Assembly (NCBI GenBank): GCA_903928345.1
Contig: CAIYQO010000229.1
Coordinates: 1,351-65,350, forward strand
DNA length: 64,000 nt
Reading direction: 5' to 3'
From: an uncultured bacterium
GTDB lineage: Bacteria; Armatimonadota; Hebobacteria; CAIYQO01
The position numbers and the translations under genes were made by a program. Of this stretch, positions 26,678 to 51,791 are shown one piece after another (within the stretch, counting starts at the first letter, position 1; each line of letters begins with the position of its first letter). Under the pieces are notes generated by a model, which worked only from the letters and a program-made list of their open reading frames with translations, did not search any database and had not been told where the DNA came from.

Positions 26678-26836
26678 GGAGAATGGGGGAAGCGGGGAAT
26701 GGGGGTATGGGGAACGGCCGGGCTCCTGCCCTGTTCCAAACGGTGACTAAGATCACACCTGATCGGTCGTCGCCTATCCATGCCGGCCTTCCCCCACTTC
26801 CCCATTCTCCCATGCCCCATTCCCCACTTCCCCCCG
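26678..26836. repeat. MITE-like element, same family, copy B, in direct orientation relative to copy A; between the ADH start and hypF.
   Basis: ggagaatgggggaagcggggaatggg...ccgggctcctgccctgttccaaacggtgactaagatcacacctgatc...cccccacttccccattctcc. About 85% identity to copy A over the core. Confidence 0.8.
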
Positions 26837-26854
26837 GCGCGCTATAATGCCCGC

Positions 26855-29104
<2,250 letters not shown>

Positions 29105-29253
29105 ATGGTATCGCATATCCCGAATTTGTCGCATTTACCCACCCACTTTTCGCGCCCATTCGTGCTTGTTTCTTATATAGTTTGTAAGATTTATGGAACA
29201 AAAAAAGTTCGCAACTATTTTCCACACCAGCTTAACTATCAACCGTTTTCGTG

Positions 29254-29282
29254 TTGACACTTCCATACGCTTGTGATATTTA
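29254..29282 (+). promoter_or_regulatory. Sigma70-type promoter for the hdrCBA-mvhDGA-protease operon.
   Basis: TTGACA (29254-29259), 17-nt spacer, TATTTA (29277-29282), in an AT-rich 280-bp intergenic region, about 100 nt upstream of hdrC. Confidence 0.5.
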
Positions 29283-29381
29283 TAACTAGTGCCGGTTGTC
29301 ACGAACTCCGACCGCCTGCATCGTCGCACAACCCTATTCGCCCCGGACGAGGCACCCTCTCGCCGCAAAGGAGCGTACCGA

Positions 29382-29975
29382 ATGGACGAGATCACGCGCA
29401 CGGTCAAATACGAGGCCGACACCGACCCGCATTTTGCCGAGGAGATCGCCGGCATCGCGCGCGGGGAGACGCTGCGCGCCTGCATCCAGTGCGGCAACTG
29501 CAGCGGCGCCTGCCCGGTGAGCCCGTACATGGATTACACGCCGCGCCGCATCATCGCCATGACGCGCGCCGGCTTCAAGCGGGAAGCGCTCTCCTCCACC
29601 ACCATCTGGCTCTGCGCCTCCTGCTACAACTGCACGGTGGAGTGCCCCAAGCAGATCCGCATCACCGACGTGATGTACGCGCTGAAGCAGAAGGCCATCA
29701 AGGAGCGGCTCTACCCGAAACGCTTCCCCGTCGCCGTGCTTGCCCGCGAGTTCTCCGCTGCCGTGCGCCAGTTCGGGCGTAACAGCGAGCTGTGGCTCAT
29801 CATCTACCTCTACCTGAAGACTAACCCCTTCGCCATGCTCAAGCAATCGATCCTCGGCCTGCGCCTCTTCCTGCAGGGACGCATGGGCTTGAAGCGCGAG
29901 CGCATCCCCATGGGCACGGGCAAAAAGGGCGATCTGCAGACGATTTGGAACGCACTCGACCGCGCCGACCGGTAA
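29382..29975 (+). CDS. hdrC: Heterodisulfide reductase subunit C-like (4Fe-4S dicluster).
   Basis: Two ferredoxin-type motifs CIQCGNCSGACP and CASCYNCTVECP. Size and context (precedes hdrB/hdrA) fit HdrC. RBS AAGGAG. Sigma70-like promoter about 100 nt upstream. Confidence 0.8.
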   Translation: MDEITRTVKYEADTDPHFAEEIAGIARGETLRACIQCGNCSGACPVSPYMDYTPRRIIAMTRAGFKREALSSTTIWLCASCYNCTVECPKQIRITDVMYALKQKAIKERLYPKRFPVAVLAREFSAAVRQFGRNSELWLIIYLYLKTNPFAMLKQSILGLRLFLQGRMGLKRERIPMGTGKKGDLQTIWNALDRADR

Positions 29976-29988
29976 GGAAGGGACCGCC

Positions 29989-30873
29989 ATGAATCACCTG
30001 TACTACCCCGGTTGCTCGCTGAAAAGCACCGGACGCGCCTACGAGGAATCGCTGCTGGCGGTGTGCGCCACGCTGGGCGTGGGGCTCACCGAGCTGCAGG
30101 ACTGGAACTGCTGCGGCGCCACCAGCTACATGGCGATCGACGAGGTGAAGGCCTTCGCGCTGGCGGCGCGCAACCTGGCCCTTGCCGAGGAGCAGGGGAA
30201 GGTCGGTCCGGGCACCCCGACGGTGGACCTGGTGGCCCCCTGCGCCGCGTGCTACCTGGTGCTTGCCAAGGCGCAGCACTGCCTGGAGGAGAACAAGGAG
30301 GTCGGTGGGAAGATCACCGCCGCGCTGGCCGCCGCGCAACTGCAGTATACGGGCCGCGTGGTGATGCGCCACCCCCTCGATCTGTTCACCAACGCGCTGG
30401 GGCTGGACGCCATCAAGGCGCAGGTGACCAAACCGCTGACCGGCCTGAAGGTGGCCTGCTACTACGGCTGCCAGATCGTGCGCCCCTACGCCACCTTCGA
30501 CGACCAGTACCACCCGATGACGATGGATCACCTGGTGACCGCGCTGGGCGGCACCCCGGTGGACTGGCCGCTGAAGACGCGCTGCTGCGGCGGGTCGCTC
30601 ACCGGCACGGTACAGGAGGTCGGCCTGCGTATGAGCTACCACCTGCTCAAGGAAGCGCGCAAGCGCGGTGCCGACGTGCTGCTTACCGCCTGCCCGCTGT
30701 GCCAGTTCAACCTGGAATGCTACCAGGATCCGATGAAGGCGCTGTTCCCCGATCACGAGCCGCTGCCCGTGCTGTACTTCACCCAACTGATGGGCCTGGC
30801 ACTCGGCCTGGAGCGCGCGCGCCTGGGCCTGCAGCGCCTCTTCGTGCCCTTCCGCCAGCCGGTCGGCGTATAA
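29989..30873 (+). CDS. hdrB: Heterodisulfide reductase subunit B-like (two CCG domains).
   Basis: CCG-domain cysteine patterns (YYPGCSL...NCCGA... and YYGCQ...TRCCGG...CPLCQFN). Confidence 0.85.
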   Translation: MNHLYYPGCSLKSTGRAYEESLLAVCATLGVGLTELQDWNCCGATSYMAIDEVKAFALAARNLALAEEQGKVGPGTPTVDLVAPCAACYLVLAKAQHCLEENKEVGGKITAALAAAQLQYTGRVVMRHPLDLFTNALGLDAIKAQVTKPLTGLKVACYYGCQIVRPYATFDDQYHPMTMDHLVTALGGTPVDWPLKTRCCGGSLTGTVQEVGLRMSYHLLKEARKRGADVLLTACPLCQFNLECYQDPMKALFPDHEPLPVLYFTQLMGLALGLERARLGLQRLFVPFRQPVGV

Positions 30874-30960
30874 CCCGGATAGTTTACGATGTCACGGACT
30901 GCCGGGCTATCAGAGGCATTATTCGAAATGTTCTGAATAATGCGGGATAAAGGAGCCCCC

Positions 30961-32958
30961 ATGAGCGAGACGATGCAATCCGCGGAACCCCGCGTCGGCG
31001 TCTACGTCTGCCACTGCGGCATCAATATCGCCGCCAAGGTGGACATCGCCGCCGTGGTGGAGTTCGCCAAGACGCTACCCTACGTCATCGTGGTGCGCGA
31101 TTACAAGTTCATGTGCTCCGACCCCGGTCAGGAGCTGCTGCAGCAGGACATCAAGGAGCTGGGCCTCAACCGCATCGTGGTGGCCTCCTGTTCTCCGCTG
31201 ATGCACGAAGCGACCTTCCGCCACGCCACCGAAGCCGCCGGGCTGAACCAGTTCTACTTCCAGATGGCGAACATCCGCGAACACGTGAGCTGGGTCACGG
31301 CGGACAAGGCGCTGGCCACACGCAAATCGCAGGCGCTGGTCTCCGCCGCCGTGCGCCGCGTGGTGCTCAACGAGCCGCTGGAGCACCAGAAGGTGCCGGT
31401 GAAGCCGAACGTGCTGGTGGTCGGCGGCGGCATCGCCGGCATCCACGCCGCGCTGACCCTCGCCAACGCCGGCAAGCAGGTCACCCTAGTCGAGCGCGAG
31501 CCGACCATCGGCGGCCACATGGCGAAGTTCGACAAAACCTTCCCCACCCTCGACTGCGCCGCGTGCATCCTCACCCCGAAGATGTCCATGGTGAGGAGCC
31601 ACCCCAATATCACCATGCTCACCTACGCCGAGGTGGTCGGGGTGGAGGGGTACGTCGGCAACTTCACCGTGAAGGTGAAGAAGAAGGCGCGCTACGTGCA
31701 CGAAGAGCTGTGTGTGGGCTGCAACGAGTGCGTCGAGGCGTGCGTGTACAAGGAAGGCCGCTTCACGGACACCTTTAACGAGGGATTGAGCAAACGCAAA
31801 CCCGTCTACATGCCCTTCCCGCAGGCGACGCCCTCCGTGGTGCTCATCGATCCGGAGTCGTGCATCGAGCTAAAGACGGGCAAGTGTAAAAAGCAATGCG
31901 CCACCGCCTGCACGCGCAACGCCATCGACTTTACGATGACGGACGAAATCGTCGCGCTGGAGGTGGGCGCCATCATCATCGCCACCGGCTTCCAGACCTT
32001 CGACGCCACCCGCATCCCGCAGTACGGCTACGGCAAGTTCCCCAACGTCTACACCAGCCTCGAGGTCGAGCGCCTGGTGAACGCCTCCGGCCCGACCGGC
32101 GGCGAGGTGCAACTGCGCGACGGGAGCACGCCGAAGCGCGTGGGGATCATCCACTGCGTAGGCAGCCGCGACGAGAAGACCAACCGCCACTGCTCGCGCG
32201 TCTGCTGCATGTACTCCCTCAAGCTCGCCCACCTCATCCACGAGCGCACCGACGCGGAGGTGTATAACCTCTACATCGACATGCGCACGCCGGGCAAGGG
32301 GTATGAGGAGTTCTACGACAAGCTGCTCAAGGAGGGCGTCAACTTCATCCGCGGGCGCGCCGCCGAAGTCACGGACTGGACGGTGACCCCGGAGGAAGAG
32401 GGCAAGCTGGTCATCCGCGCCGAAGACACCCTCATCGGCGTAGTGCGCCGCATCCCGGTGGACATGGTGGTGCTCTCCGTGGGGCTGGAAGCGCACGCCG
32501 ACGCCGATGAGGTGCGCCGCCTCTTCAACATCTCCTGCAGCAAGGAAGGCTGGTTCCTGGAGCGTCACCCGAAGCTCGCGCCCGTCTCCACCTTCACCGA
32601 CGGCATCTTCATCGCCGGCGCCTGCCAGGGGCCGAAGGACATCCCCGACACGGTGGCGCAGGCCGGCGCGGCGGTAGCCGAGGCGCTGGCGCTGGTGGAC
32701 CGCGGCTTCGTGGAGCTGGAGCCCAACACCGCGTTCATCACCAAGGAACTGTGCTCCGGTTGCCATACCTGCATCGCCATGTGCCCGTTCAGCGCCATCC
32801 GCTACAACAAAGAAGCGGGCGTGGCGGAGATCAACCCCGCGCTGTGCAAAGGCTGCGGCACCTGCGTCGCCGCCTGCCCGTCCGGCGCCGCCCAGCAACA
32901 CCTGTTCACCGACGAGCAGATCTTCCAGGAAATCGAAGGAGTGCTCAATTATGTCTGA
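30961..32958 (+). CDS. hdrA: Heterodisulfide reductase subunit A-like FAD/Fe-S flavoprotein (putative bifurcating subunit).
   Basis: FAD-binding VLVVGGGIAGIHAAL. Several 4Fe-4S motifs (CVGCNECVEAC, CSGCHTCIAMCP, CKGCGTCVAACP). N-terminal VYVCHCGINIA. 665 aa. Confidence 0.9.
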   Translation: MSETMQSAEPRVGVYVCHCGINIAAKVDIAAVVEFAKTLPYVIVVRDYKFMCSDPGQELLQQDIKELGLNRIVVASCSPLMHEATFRHATEAAGLNQFYFQMANIREHVSWVTADKALATRKSQALVSAAVRRVVLNEPLEHQKVPVKPNVLVVGGGIAGIHAALTLANAGKQVTLVEREPTIGGHMAKFDKTFPTLDCAACILTPKMSMVRSHPNITMLTYAEVVGVEGYVGNFTVKVKKKARYVHEELCVGCNECVEACVYKEGRFTDTFNEGLSKRKPVYMPFPQATPSVVLIDPESCIELKTGKCKKQCATACTRNAIDFTMTDEIVALEVGAIIIATGFQTFDATRIPQYGYGKFPNVYTSLEVERLVNASGPTGGEVQLRDGSTPKRVGIIHCVGSRDEKTNRHCSRVCCMYSLKLAHLIHERTDAEVYNLYIDMRTPGKGYEEFYDKLLKEGVNFIRGRAAEVTDWTVTPEEEGKLVIRAEDTLIGVVRRIPVDMVVLSVGLEAHADADEVRRLFNISCSKEGWFLERHPKLAPVSTFTDGIFIAGACQGPKDIPDTVAQAGAAVAEALALVDRGFVELEPNTAFITKELCSGCHTCIAMCPFSAIRYNKEAGVAEINPALCKGCGTCVAACPSGAAQQHLFTDEQIFQEIEGVLNYV

Positions 32959-33415
32959 CACCCCCGCCTTCGAGCCGCGTATCGTGGCCTTCTTTTGCAA
33001 CTGGTGCACCTACACCGCCGCCGACCTGGCGGGCACGGCGCGCCTGACCTACGCGCCCAACGTGCGCGTGGTGCGCATCATGTGCTCGGGCCGCCTCGAC
33101 CCGCAGTTCGTGGTCACGGCCTTGCGCCAGGGCGCCGACGGCGTGCTCATCGGCGGCTGCCACCCCGGCGATTGCCACTACCAGGAAGGCAACTACAAGA
33201 TGCTGCGCCGCTTCCACCTGCTGAAGCGCATGCTCAAGCAGTTCGGCATCGACGATCAGCGCGTGCGCCTGGAGTGGATTTCCGCCTCCGAGGGCGACAA
33301 GGTGCAGCGCGTCATCAACGAGATGGTGGCGCAGGTGCGCGACCTCGGCCCGTTGGCGCTGGTCGGCAAACCAACCCCGCACCCGGACGCAAGCGAGAAG
33401 CACGCCGCCGCGTAG
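32951..33415 (+). CDS. mvhD: Methyl-viologen-reducing hydrogenase delta subunit (MvhD)-like [2Fe-2S] protein.
   Basis: RIVAFFCNWCTYTAADLAGTARL...CSGRLDP...LIGGCHPGDCHYQEGN matches MvhD/FlpD. Start overlaps the hdrA stop (ATGTCTGA). Confidence 0.85.
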   Translation: MSDTPAFEPRIVAFFCNWCTYTAADLAGTARLTYAPNVRVVRIMCSGRLDPQFVVTALRQGADGVLIGGCHPGDCHYQEGNYKMLRRFHLLKRMLKQFGIDDQRVRLEWISASEGDKVQRVINEMVAQVRDLGPLALVGKPTPHPDASEKHAAA

Positions 33416-33430
33416 CGAAGGAGACACCCG

Positions 33431-34396
33431 ATGACAAAACCAAAAGTCGGCTTTTACTGGTGTGCCTCCTGCGGGGGGTGTGAAGAAGCGGTGGTCGATC
33501 TGCACGAGGCGATCCTCGACGTGGTCGCCGCGGTGGACATCGTCTTCTGGCCGTGCGCGATGGATTTTAAGCGCACGGATGTGGAGGCGATGGCCGACGG
33601 CGAGCTGGCGGTCTGCTTCATCAACGGCGCCGTGCGCACCAGCGAGCAGTTCGAGATGGTCGAGCTGTTGCGCCGCAAGGCGGGGGTGGTTATCGCCTTC
33701 GGCGCCTGCGCGCAGAGCGGCGGCATCCCCGGGCTGGCGAACTTCACCTCGAAGGCTGCCATCCTGGCGAACGTGTATGAGGACACGCGCACCACGGTGA
33801 ACCCGCACAAGACTTACCCGCAGGCCACGGTGCAGGTGCCGGAAGGCACGCTGACGCTGCCCGTGCTCGACGAGACGGTACGCGCGCTGGGGCAGGCGAT
33901 CCCGGTGGACTATTACCTGCCCGGCTGCCCGCCGCCCGCGAAACTCATCGCCGACGCGGTGGGGGCCATCCTCGCCGGCACTTTGCCCGCGCCGGGCAGC
34001 GTGCTGGCACCCAACGTGGGTGTTTGCCACGAGTGCACGCGCAAGGAGACGAAGCCGGAGAAGATGCTCGTCACCCAGTTCAAGCGCCCGCATCAGGTGC
34101 TCATCGACCCCGCCCAGTGCCTGCTGGCGCAGGGATTGGTCTGCCTGGGGCCGGATACGCGCAGCGGCTGCGGCGCCGCCTGCCCGGCGGGCAATATGCC
34201 CTGCACCGGCTGCCTGGGCGCGCTGGATCAGGTGCGCGACTTCGGCGCCAAGGCGCTCTCCGGCCTGGCGTCCGTGCTGGACGCCGGGGAGGACGCCGCC
34301 ATTGACGCGGGCCTGGCCGGCGTGCCCGATCCCGCCGGCACCTTTTATCGTTACAGCCTGCCCGCCTCCGAGCTTTTCGCGAAGCTGCCGGAGTAG
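33431..34396 (+). CDS. mvhG: [NiFe]-hydrogenase small subunit (group 3, MvhG-like).
   Basis: N-terminal FYWCASCGGCEEAVVDL proximal-cluster motif, GACAQSGGIPG, and C-terminal cluster cysteines CHECTRKE...CPAGNMPCTGCLG. RBS AAGGAGA. Confidence 0.85.
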   Translation: MTKPKVGFYWCASCGGCEEAVVDLHEAILDVVAAVDIVFWPCAMDFKRTDVEAMADGELAVCFINGAVRTSEQFEMVELLRRKAGVVIAFGACAQSGGIPGLANFTSKAAILANVYEDTRTTVNPHKTYPQATVQVPEGTLTLPVLDETVRALGQAIPVDYYLPGCPPPAKLIADAVGAILAGTLPAPGSVLAPNVGVCHECTRKETKPEKMLVTQFKRPHQVLIDPAQCLLAQGLVCLGPDTRSGCGAACPAGNMPCTGCLGALDQVRDFGAKALSGLASVLDAGEDAAIDAGLAGVPDPAGTFYRYSLPASELFAKLPE

Positions 34397-34408
34397 AGGA
34401 ATTTTTCC

Positions 34409-35875
34409 ATGAGCCAGAAGATCACCATCGATCCGATCACCCGCCTGGAAGGGCACGGCAAGGTCGATATCTTCCTCGATGACGCGGGGAACGTCGAACG
34501 CGCCTACCTGCAGATTCCCGAGTTGCGCGGGTTCGAGAAGTTCGCGGAAGGCCGTCCGGTGGAGGACATGCCGCAGATCACCTCGCGCATCTGCGGCGTC
34601 TGCCCCACCGCGCACCATATGGCCGCGTCCAAGGCCGTCGACGCCGTCTTCCACGTGGAGCCATCGGTGCCCGGGCGCAAAATTCGCGACCTCGTCTACA
34701 GCATCTTCTTCGTGGAAGACCATGCCTTGCACTTCTACTACCTGGGCGGACCGGACTTCATCGTCGGCCCCACGGCCCCCAAGGCGGAGCGCAACATCCT
34801 GGGCGTGCTGGGCAAGGTGGGCCTCGAGATCGGTAAAGAGGTGATCGGCCTGCGCCGGCAACTGCGCGAACTCATCGCGCTGGCGGGCGGCAAGGTGATC
34901 CACCCAGTACTCGGCCTGCCCGGCGGCGTGGCGAAGGCGCTGACGAAGGAGGACCAGGCGAAGTTCATCGCGGCGGCCGACCACGCGGTAGAGTTCGCCG
35001 AGTTCACGCTGAAGATCTTTCACGACATCGTGCTGAAGAACCCCGACTACGTGGCGTGGATCACCAACGACATCAACACCCACGCGACCTATTACATGGG
35101 CCAGGTGGACGCGAAGAACCGGGTGAACTTCTACGACGGGCAGATCCGCGTGGTGGCGCCGGACGGCAAGGAGTTCCTCAAATTCCCCGCCGCCGACTTC
35201 CACCAGCACGTGGCTGAGCAGGTGGAGCCGTGGAGCTACATCAAGTTCTGCTACCTGCGCGCGGTGGGCTGGAAGGGCTTCACCGACGGCGCGGACAGCG
35301 GCGTCTACTGCGTCGCCCCGCTGGCGCGCCTCAACGCCGCCGACGGCATGGCCACCCCGAAGGCGCAGGCCGCCTACGAGGAGATGTACGCCCTACTCGG
35401 CGGCAAGCCGGTGCACCACACGCTGGCGAACCACTGGGCGCGCCTGATCGAACTGCTCTACGCCGCCGAACGCATGCAGGAGCTGGCCAACGACCCGGAC
35501 ATTATCGACCCCAACGTGCGCACGCTGCCCACTGCCACGCCGACGGAAGGCGTGGGCATCGTGGAGGCCCCGCGCGGCACGCTGGTGCACTACTACGCCA
35601 CCGACGCCGACGGACTGGTGACGCGGGCCAACCTCATCGTCGCCACGCAGAACAATGCCGCGCGCATCGCCATGTCGGTGGATAAGACGGCGCGCGGGGT
35701 GATCAAAAACGGCAAGGTGGACGACGGCATCCTGAACATGGTGGAGATGGCCTTCCGCGCCTACGACCCGTGTCACGGCTGTGCCACCCACGCGCTGCCC
35801 GGGCAGATGCCGCTGCGGCTGGCTATCTACAACGCCGCGGGCGTACAAATCGACGAGATCCGACGGGACGGGTGA
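34409..35875 (+). CDS. mvhA: [NiFe]-hydrogenase large subunit (group 3c, MvhA-like).
   Basis: N-terminal Ni-Fe ligand motif RICGVCPTAHH and C-terminal DPCHGCATHA motif, with a short extension after the His. 488 aa. Confidence 0.9.
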   Translation: MSQKITIDPITRLEGHGKVDIFLDDAGNVERAYLQIPELRGFEKFAEGRPVEDMPQITSRICGVCPTAHHMAASKAVDAVFHVEPSVPGRKIRDLVYSIFFVEDHALHFYYLGGPDFIVGPTAPKAERNILGVLGKVGLEIGKEVIGLRRQLRELIALAGGKVIHPVLGLPGGVAKALTKEDQAKFIAAADHAVEFAEFTLKIFHDIVLKNPDYVAWITNDINTHATYYMGQVDAKNRVNFYDGQIRVVAPDGKEFLKFPAADFHQHVAEQVEPWSYIKFCYLRAVGWKGFTDGADSGVYCVAPLARLNAADGMATPKAQAAYEEMYALLGGKPVHHTLANHWARLIELLYAAERMQELANDPDIIDPNVRTLPTATPTEGVGIVEAPRGTLVHYYATDADGLVTRANLIVATQNNAARIAMSVDKTARGVIKNGKVDDGILNMVEMAFRAYDPCHGCATHALPGQMPLRLAIYNAAGVQIDEIRRDG

Positions 35876-36336
35876 TGCGTACTCTCGTGCTGGGCCTGGG
35901 TAACGACCTGATCGCCGACGACGGCCTCGGCCTGCTCGCCGCGCGCGAGTTGGCGGTGACGCACGGGCACCTGGCCGACGTGGTGGAGACCGGGCTGGCG
36001 GGCCTCGCGCTGCTCGACCTGTTTCTCGATTACGACCGCGCGCTGGTCATCGATGCCATCCAGACGGGCACGCATCCGCCGGGGACGATCCTCGCCATTC
36101 GCGGCGACGAACTCTCCGCGGTGGTCGCCCCCTCGCCGCACTACGCGGGGCTGCCGGAGCTGTTCGCGCTGGCGCAGGCGATGGGCCTCGCCTTCCCCCG
36201 CGACGTGCGCATCCTCGCCATGGAAGTCGAGGACGCCGCCACCATCGGCGCCGGCCTCACCCCCGCGGTGGCCGCCGCCCTGCCGACGCTGGTCGCGCGG
36301 GCGGGGGCGATGCTCGAAAACTGGCCGGGGGAGTGA
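35875..36336 (+). CDS. Hydrogenase maturation endopeptidase (HycI/HoxW/HyaD family).
   Basis: MRTLVLGLGNDLIADDGLGL...GLALLDLF...LVIDAI is typical of hydrogenase C-terminal processing proteases. ATG overlaps the mvhA stop (ATGA). Confidence 0.8.
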   Translation: MRTLVLGLGNDLIADDGLGLLAARELAVTHGHLADVVETGLAGLALLDLFLDYDRALVIDAIQTGTHPPGTILAIRGDELSAVVAPSPHYAGLPELFALAQAMGLAFPRDVRILAMEVEDAATIGAGLTPAVAAALPTLVARAGAMLENWPGE

Positions 36337-36400
36337 AAATTGGGGACTGGCTCGAATTTTCACGGTGGATGATAGATGCCCTTTAATTTGTAACTGCTGC

Positions 36401-36573
36401 TATGGTCCGCGGGGTAGCGGCGACTGAAGTCGCAGCTCTTTGGCCTTTCGGCCAACCGTCCGCCTACACGGACGGGAGAAGGAAAAGAATTTACGATGTT
36501 GGTGCATCCCCGCAGGGGGACGCTTGGCCGATGAGGCCAAACAGCTGCGATTTCAATCGCCAGGGTCGTCAAT
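36401..36573. repeat. Palindromic MITE-like element, family ggcgattgaaatcgcagct, copy 1 (between the hydrogenase protease gene and hypA).
   Basis: Internal TIRs gcgactgaagtcgcagctctttggcc / ggccaaacagctgcgatttcaatcgcc. Its reverse complement aligns with the copy at 39268-39444 at both ends. Confidence 0.8.
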
Positions 36574-36700
36574 CGTACCGATAGTCATTTATCAAAGAAC
36601 ATCTATCATCGTTGTAAAGCTGCGACAGGCACACTTGATCCGATCACGAATAGGATGGGCAACAAACTGAGACGCGTCAGTTCTCCTCGTCGGAAAAGTC

Positions 36701-36781
36701 GGGACAGCCACCACTTTTCCGCTCCCGAGTTCGGCGTTCGAAAATGGATCGATGAAAAGTGGTGGCAGTCCCGCCTTTTTA
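36701..36781 (+). promoter_or_regulatory. Leader hairpin (19-bp perfect stem, 34-nt loop, followed by a T-run) immediately upstream of the hypA RBS; candidate attenuator or regulatory RNA structure.
   Basis: gggacagccaccacttttc (36701-36719) pairs with gaaaagtggtggcagtccc (36754-36772), followed by gccttttta. GGAGG RBS at 36786 and hypA ATG at 36799. Confidence 0.4.
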
Positions 36782-36798
36782 CCTGGAGGTGTCCGCTC

Positions 36799-37197
36799 AT
36801 GCATGAACATGCCGTGGTGGCCGGCCTCATCGACGCGCTGAACGCTCAGCTCGCCGCGCAGGGGATCACGCAGGTGGCCGAAGTGCGCGTGCGTCGCAAC
36901 AGCGCCTTCGCCGCCGCGCCGATGCAAATGGCCTTCCAGATGCTCTCCCCCCACACCCCCCTCGACGGCGCCGCGCTGGTGGTGGAGGAGTCCTATTATC
37001 GCCACATCTGCCCCAACGGCAGTTGCGGATTCCGGCAGGTCGTCACCGCCGACGACCTGATCGGCCACCTGTACATCTGCCCGGAGTGCGGCACCGCGGA
37101 GGAGATCGACGAAGCGCACGGCATCGAGGTGCTCAGCGTCACCGTCGACGACACCGTCATCCCGGTGGCCGTACATCCGCACCCGCACGAGCACTGA
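36799..37197 (+). CDS. hypA: Hydrogenase nickel incorporation protein HypA.
   Basis: MHEHAVVAGLIDALNAQ N-terminus (MHE Ni-binding start). Zn-binding CPNGSC...CPECG motifs. C-terminal His-rich tail HPHPHEH. RBS GGAGG. Confidence 0.8.
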   Translation: MHEHAVVAGLIDALNAQLAAQGITQVAEVRVRRNSAFAAAPMQMAFQMLSPHTPLDGAALVVEESYYRHICPNGSCGFRQVVTADDLIGHLYICPECGTAEEIDEAHGIEVLSVTVDDTVIPVAVHPHPHEH

Positions 37198-37314
37198 GTG
37201 TTACTACCGCCGCACAACCGCCCTCGCTTGTGAAGCCGGGCGCCTTCCCGCGTGCCTCCGACCCCGGTAGCATGGCAGGGAGCACCGCATTGGGTGCATA
37301 TGGGAGGAATGCGA

Positions 37315-37608
37315 ATGGCGATGATGAATAACCTGCCCTCGGTGGCGCGTTGCGACGTGAACGACTGCTTTTACAACCGCGAGAGCAACTGTCACGCGCC
37401 GGCCATCAACATCGGCGGCGAGCACCCCAATTGCGACACCTTCATCCCCACGGCCAACCACATCGGCCGCATGGAGCAGGGCATGGTAGGCGCCTGCCAC
37501 GTGCACCTGTGCAAGTGGAACACCGACCTGACCTGCCAGGCCAGCAACATCGTGGTGGCCCACCACAACCTGCACGCGGACTGCGAAACGTTTACGCCGG
37601 CGAAATAG
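37315..37608 (+). CDS. DUF1540 domain protein (two Cys/His-rich repeats).
   Basis: Two internal repeats each with 4 Cys: CDVNDCFYNRESNCHAPAINIGGEHPNCDTF and CHVHLCKWNTDLTCQASNIVVAHHNLHADCETF. RBS GGGAGG 7 nt before the ATG. Confidence 0.7.
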   Translation: MAMMNNLPSVARCDVNDCFYNRESNCHAPAINIGGEHPNCDTFIPTANHIGRMEQGMVGACHVHLCKWNTDLTCQASNIVVAHHNLHADCETFTPAK

Positions 37609-37624
37609 GGAACAGGAAATAGGA

Positions 37625-37672
37625 AACAGGGAACGGGTTGGTGCGCTGGCACCAACCCGTTCCCTGTTTCCC
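37625..37672. terminator. Bidirectional terminator hairpin between the convergent DUF1540 and tlpA-like genes.
   Basis: aacagggaacgggttggtgc gc tggcaccaacccgttccctgtt gives about a 20-bp perfect stem. Confidence 0.6.
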
Positions 37673-37685
37673 GTTCCCAGTTCCC

Positions 37686-38231
37686 CTACTTCGTCTCGTC
37701 CGTCTTTTTCGGCGTTTCCGTGGTGACGTACTTGGCGAGGCGCGCTTCCAGATCCTTCCGCGGCAGGGCGCCGACGATCTTGTCGACCAGCTCGCCCTTG
37801 TCGTTCAGCACGAACTTGGTGGGCAGCCCCTGGGTGCTGAAGGTTTTCAGCGCGTCGTTCGTCGCGAAGACCACCGGGTAGTTGATCTTGTGCTCCGTGG
37901 CGAAGTCCTTCACGCCGTCCTTCTCTTCGTCCACCGACATGCCGATGATCTGCAGGTTCTTCTTGTCCTTGGTTGCCTGAGCTTGCATATCGACAAGGTC
38001 AGGAATTTCGCGCTGACAAAAGCCGCACCACGTGGCCCATTCGTCCACCACCACGACCTTGCCGCGATAATCCGACAGCTTCACCGTCTTGCCGTTGATA
38101 TCGGTGAAGGTGAAATCCACCACTTTCGCGTCCGTCTTTTTACCCGACCCGTCGGCGCGCATCACCGACACCCCGAATAACGCCACCACCGCAACCGCGA
38201 TAATGAGCGGCCAATACCCCAACTTCTTCAT
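37686..38231 (-). CDS. TlpA/ResA-like thiol-disulfide oxidoreductase (thioredoxin fold, membrane anchored or secreted).
   Basis: N-terminal hydrophobic segment followed by a thioredoxin fold with WATWCGFCQREIPDL (CxxC active site). Confidence 0.8.
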   Translation of the reverse strand: MKKLGYWPLIIAVAVVALFGVSVMRADGSGKKTDAKVVDFTFTDINGKTVKLSDYRGKVVVVDEWATWCGFCQREIPDLVDMQAQATKDKKNLQIIGMSVDEEKDGVKDFATEHKINYPVVFATNDALKTFSTQGLPTKFVLNDKGELVDKIVGALPRKDLEARLAKYVTTETPKKTDETK

Positions 38232-38252: not shown

Positions 38253-39014
38253 TTACTTCGCCGCCCCGCGCAGGTGCGTGACGACGTGGTGCACCTTGGC
38301 CATGAGCAACTGATACGCATACGGCAGATTGGCATATTCGAGCTTCTGCGTCACCAGCAGCACCCCCATGACCAGCAACAGGATGCCGGAGACGATCTCG
38401 ATCGTCCGCATGTGCCGGGTGATCTTACCCAGCGATCCCAGGAAGAATTGCAAAAACATGGCCGCTAACAGGAACGGCACCGCGAGTCCGATGGTATAGG
38501 CGACCAATAAGCTCAGTTTGGCCGTGACCACGGTCATGCCCAGCACGCCGCTGAGGAACGGCCCGATGCACGGGCTCCACCCGAAGGCGAAGGCGGCCCC
38601 GATAAGCACCGCCCCGAAGACGCCCACCTTCTTCGTGTCCAGGTGAAAGCGTCGCTCCTGGAAGAGCATATTCAGGCGGAAGACCCCGAGCATGTGCAGC
38701 CCGAAGATCATGATGACCCCCGCGCCGATCCAGCTAAACGCCGTCTTCCACGCCTGCCCGGTGCTCGAAAACACCTCGACCAGCCCGCCCAACAGCAGCA
38801 CCACCACCAGGCTGAACCCGAGCATAAAGCCCAGCGCACTGCCGAGGAGCCGCCAGCGCGCGGCGCGCACGGCCTCCTGGTCCTGCATCTCCTCGAACGT
38901 CATGCCGGAGATGAGCGAGAGATACACCGGCACAATCGGCAACACGCACGGGGAGAAGAAACTCATAATCCCCGCCGCAACCGCAACAATCAGTGCCACC
39001 AGGGCACTCCCCAT
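38253..39014 (-). CDS. ccdA: Cytochrome c-type biogenesis protein CcdA / DsbD-family thiol:disulfide interchange membrane protein.
   Basis: Polytopic membrane protein with the two conserved Cys in SFFSPCVLP and FGWSPCIGP. Confidence 0.85.
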   Translation of the reverse strand: MGSALVALIVAVAAGIMSFFSPCVLPIVPVYLSLISGMTFEEMQDQEAVRAARWRLLGSALGFMLGFSLVVVLLLGGLVEVFSSTGQAWKTAFSWIGAGVIMIFGLHMLGVFRLNMLFQERRFHLDTKKVGVFGAVLIGAAFAFGWSPCIGPFLSGVLGMTVVTAKLSLLVAYTIGLAVPFLLAAMFLQFFLGSLGKITRHMRTIEIVSGILLLVMGVLLVTQKLEYANLPYAYQLLMAKVHHVVTHLRGAAK

Positions 39015-39267
39015 ATGACCCCCGTCCTCGGCGAGTCATGGAGCATCGCCGCAGTCACCTCGGTTGTTCCCGCCCCAGAGAGTCGGCAAACGCTCCGTGG
39101 CTATTGCATCAGTATATAGTTATAACTTCAAGTACCCACCATCGCGTGGAAAGAACGGTGGCATCGGTGCAATTCCGTGCGGATGGAGAGCCTGTCGTAG
39201 TATCGCGATATTGAGACATGGACCGATTGATGCTCTTTGATTCATGGGTATCGGTACGTTCTACGTG

Positions 39268-39444
39268 CTTGGCGATTGAAATCGCAGCTAGTTGGCCTCA
39301 TCGGCCAGGCGTCCCCCTACGGGGACGCGGTGGCGGTGAAAAACGTCAACACCCTCTTCCGCATCCCCGTCCGCGGAGGCGGACGGCTGGCGCGGAGTCG
39401 CCGAAGAGCTGCGCCTTCAGTCGCCGCGAACCCGCGAACCATAG
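39268..39444. repeat. Palindromic MITE-like element, same family, copy 2 (between ccdA and the DUF721 gene), inverted relative to copy 1.
   Basis: cttggcgattgaaatcgcagctagttggcctcatcggccaggcgtccccctacgggga...ctgcgccttcagtcgccgcgaacccgcgaaccatag matches the reverse complement of copy 1. Confidence 0.8.
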
Positions 39445-39620
39445 CAGCATTCAGGAATCAAAGAGCATAAATCGGTCAATTCATGCCCCCCTCACCCCAT
39501 TCACCCATTCACCCATTCACCCCGTCACCCCCTCACCCATTCACCCATTCACGCATGTACGCCGCGGCGCACATCCCGCCTCTTGGCAGGGAGCCGCTTG
39601 GCTGGTAGACTGGTTACAGT

Positions 39621-50217: not shown

Positions 50218-50605
50218 GCCCGGCTCGACCGCAGACAAGCGTAAGTGGACCAGCACTGTGTGGAAGCTCGACGGCAGTCGCGCGCCCGGCCGGAAATGAT
50301 AGTGCCCAGATCCGACAACATGTTACCGCAGACTTCAGCCTCAGAAAAGATCAGCTGGCCAATTCTGGCCCAACAGTTTACGCGAGAAGGAGGACAAGGA
50401 ATTCGTGCCGATCCTATAGAACTCTACCCAAACCGACAGGCCACGGCGACACCTGCCAGCAGATCAATGCACCAACAGGTCTATGCAGAGATAGACAACT
50501 AATTAAAACGCTATAATTGGTTGTCTTCCCCCAGATTACCTGTTCGAGCGACGTTGTATGCGCCTAAATGGTGCGGTATACCGATCTATTGGAAGGATGG
50601 TACCC

Positions 50606-51664
50606 ATGAACGACATCATTTGTAAGCGTGTAGTAATCTTGTTCCTCTTGTTGTCTCCCATTTTTGCGGCGATGACCTGCGCACAAACGATCGCGTATAG
50701 CCTGGACTCACAAATATGGGGCATGGATATGCACACACGACATAAATTTCTGCTCATCAACCCCCCAGGTGTGCTCCGTGAATCGATTGGCGCTCCCGCA
50801 TGGTTTCCTGACGGGAAAAAGATTGCCGCGGTGATTGATGGAGACATCTGGCTTGCCGATGTCCCGTCCAAACAAAGCCACATACTGGTTCGCGCTGACA
50901 ATAAACCGTGTATTGGCATTCCTGCATGGTCAAAAGATGGGAAGTCGCTGTATGTTGGCCGATTAAAGAATATCGAAAGTGATGGCGATGGTGGGTTGTG
51001 GCAGTTTAATGTGCGGGATGGGAAATCTCATATCGTAATTCAACCAGAAGACGTGGATTTGCCTATACATAATTATCCACTGGTTTCTGCGGACGGTCAT
51101 TATCTGATTTCGAGCGGAATGATAGACGGCGTCGCATCTTTTTACGCCATTGACTTTAAATCGAATACGCCGATAAAACTCCCGAATCAGCAAGTCTCTA
51201 ACTTTGTCACATGCTATGCATTCGATAAATCCTGTAAAATGCTTATTCTCGGAGAATATGCTGGCGATGGCCTGATGGGGAAAGGGCCGGGTGGCGTATG
51301 GCGGTGGGACCTTACCACCAATAGATGCTCGCCATTGTCGTTAAAAGGCCAGTCAATAGAAGAAATGTCTATCAGCCCGAATGGAAAACACATGATAATA
51401 CGTATTCAAAGTATCGTACGAGGAATAGAGAGACAATCGTCCTATCTCGCTACTACAACGGGAACGAAAGTGGCAAAGATCAAAGTGCCCGGCGATATGA
51501 GCCAAATTACCTGGTTGGATAACGACACCTTTGTCGCTGATAATGCACCCACAGGAGATCCAGATCACACGAATATCATTCGTTACAACACACGTACCGG
51601 CAAATCGCGTGTGCTGGTCAAAGGGGGGTATGGTGTCGCAGTCACCGGTGTCCGTGCGCATTGA
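50606..51664 (+). CDS. TolB-like / PD40 (WD40-like) beta-propeller periplasmic protein, encoded in an AT-shifted island.
   Basis: Signal peptide MNDIICKRVVILFLLLSPIFAAMTCA. PD40-like repeats (WFPDGKKIAAV, AWSKDGKSLYV, ISPNGKHMII). Local GC about 47% versus about 68% in the flanks. RBS GGAAGGA. Confidence 0.65.
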   Translation: MNDIICKRVVILFLLLSPIFAAMTCAQTIAYSLDSQIWGMDMHTRHKFLLINPPGVLRESIGAPAWFPDGKKIAAVIDGDIWLADVPSKQSHILVRADNKPCIGIPAWSKDGKSLYVGRLKNIESDGDGGLWQFNVRDGKSHIVIQPEDVDLPIHNYPLVSADGHYLISSGMIDGVASFYAIDFKSNTPIKLPNQQVSNFVTCYAFDKSCKMLILGEYAGDGLMGKGPGGVWRWDLTTNRCSPLSLKGQSIEEMSISPNGKHMIIRIQSIVRGIERQSSYLATTTGTKVAKIKVPGDMSQITWLDNDTFVADNAPTGDPDHTNIIRYNTRTGKSRVLVKGGYGVAVTGVRAH

Positions 51665-51791
51665 AGGCTCATGGGGCATGTCACCACCTACAAACCAAAC
51701 ACAACCACTTATATATTCTTACCCCACAAATGCCACTTTTCCTCACCCCCGCATCGTTGACGCCGCCCGCCCCATCTGCTACGCTACCGGC

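Follow-up and report, generated by a model that had tools for sequence, protein, structure and literature searches.

The window analysed here is a 64,000-nt stretch of DNA from an Armatimonadota-like genome, of which positions 26780-37197 are an Hdr-linked Mvh-type [NiFe] hydrogenase cluster. On the + strand this cluster comprises hypF (26780-29104), an hdrC-like gene (29289-29975), an hdrB-like gene (29989-30873), an hdrA-like gene (30940-32958), mvhD (32951-33415), the genes for the [NiFe] small subunit (33431-34396) and the VhuA-like [NiFe] large subunit (34409-35875), a HycI-type protease gene (35872-36336), and, after a 460-nt gap, hypA (36799-37197, 132 aa). The hypA product was assigned by Pfam (HypA, E 3.4e-12; the NCBIfam hypA match was below cut-off), and carries a His-rich C-terminal tail, HPHPHEH. 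Among the window ORFs tested there was no hypB, hypC, hypD or hypE. A DUF1540 gene (37315-37608, including the stop codon) follows hypA on the same strand, as an earlier note on this DNA had stated; the spacer, put there at 118 nt, was counted here as 117 nt. Beyond it, on the - strand, lie the gene for a TlpA/ResA-like thiol-disulfide oxidoreductase (tlpA, 37686-38231; Pfam AhpC-TSA and Redoxin, NCBIfam ResA and TlpA) and a CcdA/DsbD_TM gene (ccdA, 38253-39014; Pfam DsbD_TM). Just upstream of the hypA start, an inverted repeat (36694-36779), whose 26-nt arms are 92% complementary and enclose a 34-nt loop, has a T-run (GGTGGCAGTCCCGCC TTTTT) at its end and is terminator-like on the + strand, which suggests that hypA, and perhaps the DUF1540 gene, is transcribed apart from the mvh genes.

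The ORF at 37315-37608 (+) has 97 codons, and its translation is MAMMNNLPSVARCDVNDCFYNRESNCHAPAINIGGEHPNCDTFIPTANHIGRMEQGMVGACHVHLCKWNTDLTCQASNIVVAHHNLHADCETFTPAK, a 10.7-kDa protein with two repeats. It matched Pfam PF07561 (DUF1540) above the gathering threshold, over two stretches (E 9.7e-12, 45.2 bits against a cut-off of 22.1), in agreement with the two repeats read earlier from the sequence, and no NCBIfam model matched it. Repeat 1, the best Pfam stretch, spans residues 12-43 (37348-37443, + strand) with Cys13, Cys18, Cys26 and Cys40 spaced C-x4-C-x7-C-x13-C, and repeat 2, the second Pfam stretch, spans residues 58-93 (37486-37593, + strand) with Cys61, Cys66, Cys74 and Cys90 spaced C-x4-C-x7-C-x15-C, so that both repeats have the four conserved Cys of the domain. 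By internal BLASTP the repeats match one another (34% identity, E 8e-7), which makes them a true tandem duplication. The gene is genuine and under purifying selection, given a dN/dS of 0.20 against an 85%-identical orthologue (L001) and 512 homologous clusters at 50% identity. The protein is hydrophilic (GRAVY -0.25, pI 6.0), and no signal peptide or hydrophobic segment was seen on reading its sequence, so it is probably cytoplasmic.

A ribosome-binding site, GGGAGG (37302-37307, + strand), precedes the ATG at 37315 by 7 nt; both are kept in L001, and GGAGG-like sites precede the gene in other orthologues too. A further in-frame ATG six bases upstream of 37315 is ACG in L001, which makes 37315 the better start. 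Most homologues start three residues further in than the window protein. A promoter scan of the spacer between hypA and the DUF1540 gene reported none. A candidate read by eye, TTCCCG-17 nt-TAGCAT (37245-37273, + strand), was below the scan threshold; in L001 the corresponding hexamers are TTCCCG-17-TACCAT, amid a diverged spacer, and we take this as a weak hint that the gene might have a promoter of its own. No terminator-like site was found by scan between hypA and the DUF1540 gene. With neither a terminator-like site nor a scan promoter in the spacer, co-transcription with hypA is possible, and there may hence be a local functional tie in this genome.

Downstream, a long hairpin (37608-37685; 37-nt arms, 89% complementary) occupies the entire gap up to the convergent tlpA, with a minimum free energy of -71.2 kcal/mol (z = -11.2 against shuffles). 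It is likely a transcription stop or an mRNA 3' stabiliser. Terminator-like sites were found by scan on the - strand only, and the T-rich tail (TCCTATTTCC) is likewise on the - strand, with no U-tract directly 3' of the stem on the + strand. The strong hairpin before the convergent tlpA bears out the earlier description of the site, of which a bidirectional terminator is a putative reading. The hairpin is absent from the relative L001. Rfam microRNA-precursor (hairpin) matches of 37608-37685 scored far below the gathering scores and were discarded.

Homologues were collected by a word-indexed search, which returned 12 close homologues, all DUF1540 and, where named, from Armatimonadota, and by a profile search, which drew 512 clusters at 50% identity (248 with E < 1e-10) from 1.84 billion representatives, nearly all of 90-100 aa with both repeats present. 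Across 122 diverse family members, each of the eight Cys was present in 121-122. Conservation of His was lower (H27 70%, H87 54%, H84 50%, H37 41%, H62 19%), with Lys commoner than His at position 62, and H64 and H83 unconserved. Within the close clade, made up of Armatimonadota and some Myxococcota, the His residues at 27, 37, 49, 62, 84 and 87 are invariant; orthologues that are not adjacent to hyp genes share these His, so the His-rich character is not special to the hyp-adjacent copies. Since the Cys are invariant and the His are not universal, the family signature is four Cys per repeat, Cx4Cx7Cx13-15C, with as further marks an Asn three residues after the second Cys and a Thr-aromatic pair after the fourth. 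The count of 16 potential metal ligands made in the earlier note (8 Cys and 8 His) was reproduced, and of these the Cys proved essentially invariant, the His conserved only within the close clade. The lack of an assigned function for DUF1540, stated there, is in line with both its Pfam name and the literature, and the window protein is a further member of a known, uncharacterised two-repeat DUF1540 subfamily: the PF07561 two-repeat proteins (~95 aa) have the same eight Cys, length and repeat architecture, and the differences are the additional invariant His of its clade and the position beside hypA, unique to the window protein's own lineage.

Two family variants were observed, one case each, which are possible guides to sulfur or metal chemistry. 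In P0031 (L102, 10001-10639; five contigs), a rhodanese domain is fused to two DUF1540 repeats. In P0019 (L100, 361-732), a 25-residue His-rich insert (…GEHPHVLGHHHVGEHEAHGEHHAEPHMPGHHHH…) lies between the third and fourth Cys of repeat 1. Secondary Pfam matches among the 70 family members aligned for structure prediction (Stomagen, Stanniocalcin, FLYWCH and others) occurred in no more than 3 of these 70, at E >=0.01, and were rejected as noise from Cys-rich composition.

The earlier note had drawn from the position after hypA the idea of an accessory factor for hydrogenase maturation, and conservation of this adjacency was examined from both directions. Only the 85%-identical relative (three contigs, L001-L003) has the adjacency, keeping the order hypF-hdrCBA-mvhDGA-protease-hypA-DUF1540. 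In L001, similarity to the window stops exactly at the DUF1540 stop codon, placing the gene at the edge of the conserved block; an AraC-type gene comes next there, and tlpA and ccdA are absent from the locus. Orthologues of 60-68% identity, also from Armatimonadota, were found in unrelated contexts with no hyp adjacency: P0003 between very large secreted-type proteins, P0011 in an Armatimonadota MAG (L004, 5012-10285) 3' of genes for DtxR-like, FeoA, FeoB, FeoB-associated and YHS proteins and followed by sulfite reductase, P0012 among miscellaneous genes, P0010 (13 contigs) between a VTT-domain protein and FtsW, and P0165 near prephenate dehydrogenase. The contexts of P0194 and P0031 were likewise unrelated to hydrogenases. 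P-type ATPases also lie nearby in L004, a metal-homeostasis setting that is anecdotal, as it was not seen in other lineages.

For wider coverage, a one-genome-per-species scan was carried out from a 24-sequence alignment, the 122-sequence alignment being too diverse for the purpose, and yielded 80 loci from seven or more phyla. One peptide pattern, CH[AT][PAS]AI[NT][VI]G[GSD], served to draw these loci, so the sample covers only part of the 512 clusters. It includes Armatimonadota, Myxococcota, Nitrospirota, Planctomycetota, Fibrobacterota, Actinomycetota (Streptomyces, Cellulomonas, Frankia, Kineococcus, Nonomuraea) and Fusobacteriota, with Fusobacteriaceae represented. Searching 92 loci, these 80 among them, by tblastn with the window HypF, HdrA, HdrB, HdrC, MvhD, [NiFe] small and large subunits, HycI and HypA gave hydrogenase-cluster matches in L001-L003 only, save two marginal HdrA fragments (51 and 74 residues, E ~1e-3 to 1e-4) in L030 and L044, and none of the 80 genome loci had hyp or NiFe neighbours by this search. 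When ORFs within ±6 kb were clustered, generic ABC ATPases were the only cross-phylum neighbour group. The two upstream and two downstream genes at 49 dereplicated loci fell into 130 and 135 Pfam families, each at no more than 4 loci, and the commonest (VTT_dom, Aminotran_5, FtsW, MFS) came mostly from one clade; no hyp or hydrogenase family recurred among them. The recurrent Aminotran_5 neighbour was considered as a cysteine desulfurase; the single case identified, in L025, is SerC, a phosphoserine transaminase, and four other flanking genes scanned alongside it belonged to unrelated families.

The reverse test, starting from HypA, drew on few lineages, its metagenome scan giving only 3 loci. 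The nearest other HycI-HypA clusters (L093 and P0220) had no DUF1540 gene after them. In L093, which resembles the window in HypA (52% identity), protease (57%) and large-subunit C-terminus (72%), the order is mvhA-protease-hypA, then hypC, hypD, a HypE-like gene with AIRS domains, and hypF, and in P0220 (HypA 53% identity, 14 contigs; L096-L099) HycI-HypA is followed by an acetyltransferase. No association of DUF1540 with hyp or [NiFe] genes across lineages was thus found in either direction, and a literature search combining PF07561 or DUF1540 with hydrogenase returned no paper connecting the two. Nor was homology of the window protein to HypA-F or a HycI-type protease detected by Pfam, NCBIfam or PDB sequence searches. 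The neighbourhood survey that the earlier note had proposed therefore came out against it, with no enrichment in the sample examined, and a hydrogenase-maturation factor is not supported: the adjacency is confined to the 85%-identical relative and was found at 0 of 80 genome loci. Because family members in other genomes hardly ever have hydrogenase genes nearby, the placement beside hypA looks accidental, a lineage-specific quirk of gene order and not evidence for a role in maturation.

The surrounding DNA bears marks of rearrangement. Two non-coding repeat copies of ~245 nt (36368-36610 and 39225-39480), in inverted orientation and ~76-84% identical, bracket hypA-DUF1540-tlpA-ccdA, each with terminal inverted repeats of its own (~20-29 nt), like a miniature transposable element. 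The repeat had no Rfam match and no further copy in the window or the other fetched loci. The gap between protease and hypA, 227 nt in L001, is ~230 nt longer in the window because the first copy is inserted there, and the bracketing pair is consistent with local rearrangement at hypA-DUF1540. The simplest history is that the window lineage lost hypCDE here through rearrangement, with the DUF1540 gene merely abutting the break. Positions 39488-39564, directly beyond the second repeat copy and upstream of a DciA-like gene, hold ~7-9 tandem copies of an 8-nt unit (CCCATTCA/CCCCxTCA).

For structure prediction, AlphaFold was run with an alignment of 70 homologues, all matching DUF1540, producing an all beta-strand model at pLDDT 90.8 and pTM 0.81; an earlier run with 13 close orthologues (pLDDT 34) was useless and is superseded by this model. 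No PDB match to the window protein was found by sequence or profile search (chance matches only) or by Foldseek. The Cx4Cx7Cx13C spacing is not a recognised zinc-ribbon, rubredoxin or ferredoxin motif. Across the 70 members there was no Fer4 match at E up to 5, and the window protein lacks the CxxCxxCxxxCP motif of a 4Fe-4S ferredoxin, as well as the two CxxC knuckles and the similarity to solved members that mark rubredoxin and zinc-ribbon C4 domains.

With these data, we favour with moderate confidence a two-lobed protein that stands alone, is probably cytoplasmic and holds in each repeat one metal centre made by four Cys. Each repeat of ~40 residues would form a small module rich in beta-strand around its four essentially invariant Cys, these Cys would make up one metal centre (structural Zn, rubredoxin-like Fe or a small Fe-S centre), and the two repeats would pack into a single compact unit. 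Across bacteria the gene travels alone, with no fixed partner. What we say of the cytoplasmic location, of metal binding and the metal involved, and of the role in the cell is inferred. A metal centre is proposed because four Cys in a domain of ~40 residues resemble small tetra-cysteine metal proteins: rubredoxin, zinc ribbons, HiPIP, ferredoxins and the bacterial metallothionein SmtA also have four Cys per domain of about this length in a small soluble protein. The window protein differs from all of these in showing no homology by sequence or by Foldseek against the PDB, and in lacking CxxC knuckles and CxxCxxCxxxCP. Metallothionein orders only around its metal cluster, and is in that respect unlike the confident beta-strand model obtained here. 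HypA, a Zn(Cys)4 and Ni-binding metallochaperone, is also small, Cys- and His-containing and adjacent here, with its His-rich tail, but the window protein has no sequence similarity to it (Pfam, NCBIfam) and no conserved neighbourhood co-occurrence with it, and the Cys pattern of HypA is CxxC...CxxC, against Cx4Cx7Cx13C in the window protein.

The function suggested originally, a metal-binding or small redox protein, is plausible as a prediction because the eight Cys are essentially invariant. Such Cys may equally be explained by disulfides or by a thiol/persulfide relay, and the alternatives to a metal centre rank, in falling order of confidence, as thiol redox or sulfur relay, structural disulfides, and partnership with HypA.

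Thiol redox or sulfur relay, in which the Cys would cycle between thiol, disulfide and persulfide, for example in a redox buffer, sensor or sulfur carrier, we consider unlikely. It would account for the natural N-terminal rhodanese (sulfurtransferase) fusion in P0031, seen on 5 contigs, but this is just one fusion architecture among the homologues inspected. DUF1540 genes have been reported as radiation-induced in Deinococcus deserti (PMC4007540) and as UV-responsive in D. swuensis (PMC6886795), which is compatible with a redox role; of these, the D. deserti protein Deide_05260 has four conserved Cys, and its authors suggested metal binding (PMC4007540). It is a small four-Cys DUF1540 protein like that of the window, likened here from its published description. 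The window neighbours TlpA and CcdA are thiol-disulfide oxidoreductases, yet they are convergent to the DUF1540 gene, separated from it by the hairpin, and missing from the locus of the close relative. Four invariant Cys per repeat suit a tetrahedral site better than redox pairs, and no sequence with paired loss of Cys was found.

A disulfide-stabilised, self-assembling Cys-rich structural protein, as proposed for spore-surface Cys-rich proteins, was judged quite improbable. Endospore formation is not known in Armatimonadota, no sporulation genes were found among the window ORFs tested, and the two-repeat subfamily is spread across many non-sporulating phyla. The sequence as read has no export signal, which makes stable disulfides unlikely in a reducing cytoplasm. 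The proposal draws on CdeA (CD2375), an 11.4-kDa DUF1540 protein with four conserved Cys and no assigned function that sits in the Clostridioides difficile exosporium, where 19- and 47-kDa species were seen (PMC7677010, PMC6101409), and on the correlation of DUF1540 with endospore formation across genomes (PMC2955703). CdeA, as described in these publications, shares small size and DUF1540 with the window protein, but belongs to the spore surface of an endospore-forming species, whereas the window protein has no export signal and no sporulation genes around it. A questionable DUF1540 protein at the cydX position has also been noted in Bacillus ythABC clusters (PMC5322542).

Very improbable, in our view, is a lineage-specific accessory role, in which the His-rich DUF1540 protein would have become a partner of HypA, for Ni/Zn handling or of the Fe-S kind, in maturation of the Mvh-type [NiFe] hydrogenase. 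The gene does share its strand with hypA and follows it by 117 nt, with no terminator-like site in between, and the relative of 85% identity retains this order, but the adjacency is confined to this one near-identical lineage, in which descent alone predicts shared gene order. The lack of hypB, C, D and E among the window ORFs tested also speaks in its favour, as do the 8 His and the insert of 25 residues in the close family member P0019, which resembles nickel-binding tails; against this, orthologues of 60-68% identity carry the same invariant His and are not beside hyp genes. The 0 of 80 genome loci with hyp or NiFe neighbours, the nearest other HycI-HypA clusters without DUF1540, and the Streptomyces, Cellulomonas, Frankia and Fusobacteriaceae members in unrelated contexts all argue against it. 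Most doubtful of all is that this lineage co-opted a His-rich DUF1540 protein as a Ni/Zn buffer for HypA, partly replacing a missing HypB- or SlyD-type nickel store, although that role, if true, would be the first function for DUF1540.

For hydrogenase biology the locus is of little consequence, as the comparative evidence is against a conserved maturation factor. For the family, the preferred reading of one tetra-cysteine metal centre per repeat concerns a widespread two-repeat protein with eight invariant Cys and a confident all-beta fold that has no solved match by sequence or Foldseek, and metal analysis together with a structure of any one member would retire a long-standing DUF.

Elsewhere in the window, a possible second DUF1540 copy at 50824-51024 (tblastn E 0.034) was rejected, as no ORF there has the Cys pattern. 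It falls within a low-GC island (50350-51700, 42-50% GC against 66% for the window), which is probably recently acquired DNA and holds an ORF (50558-51664, + strand) for a 368-aa protein with PD40/WD40-like beta-propeller repeats.
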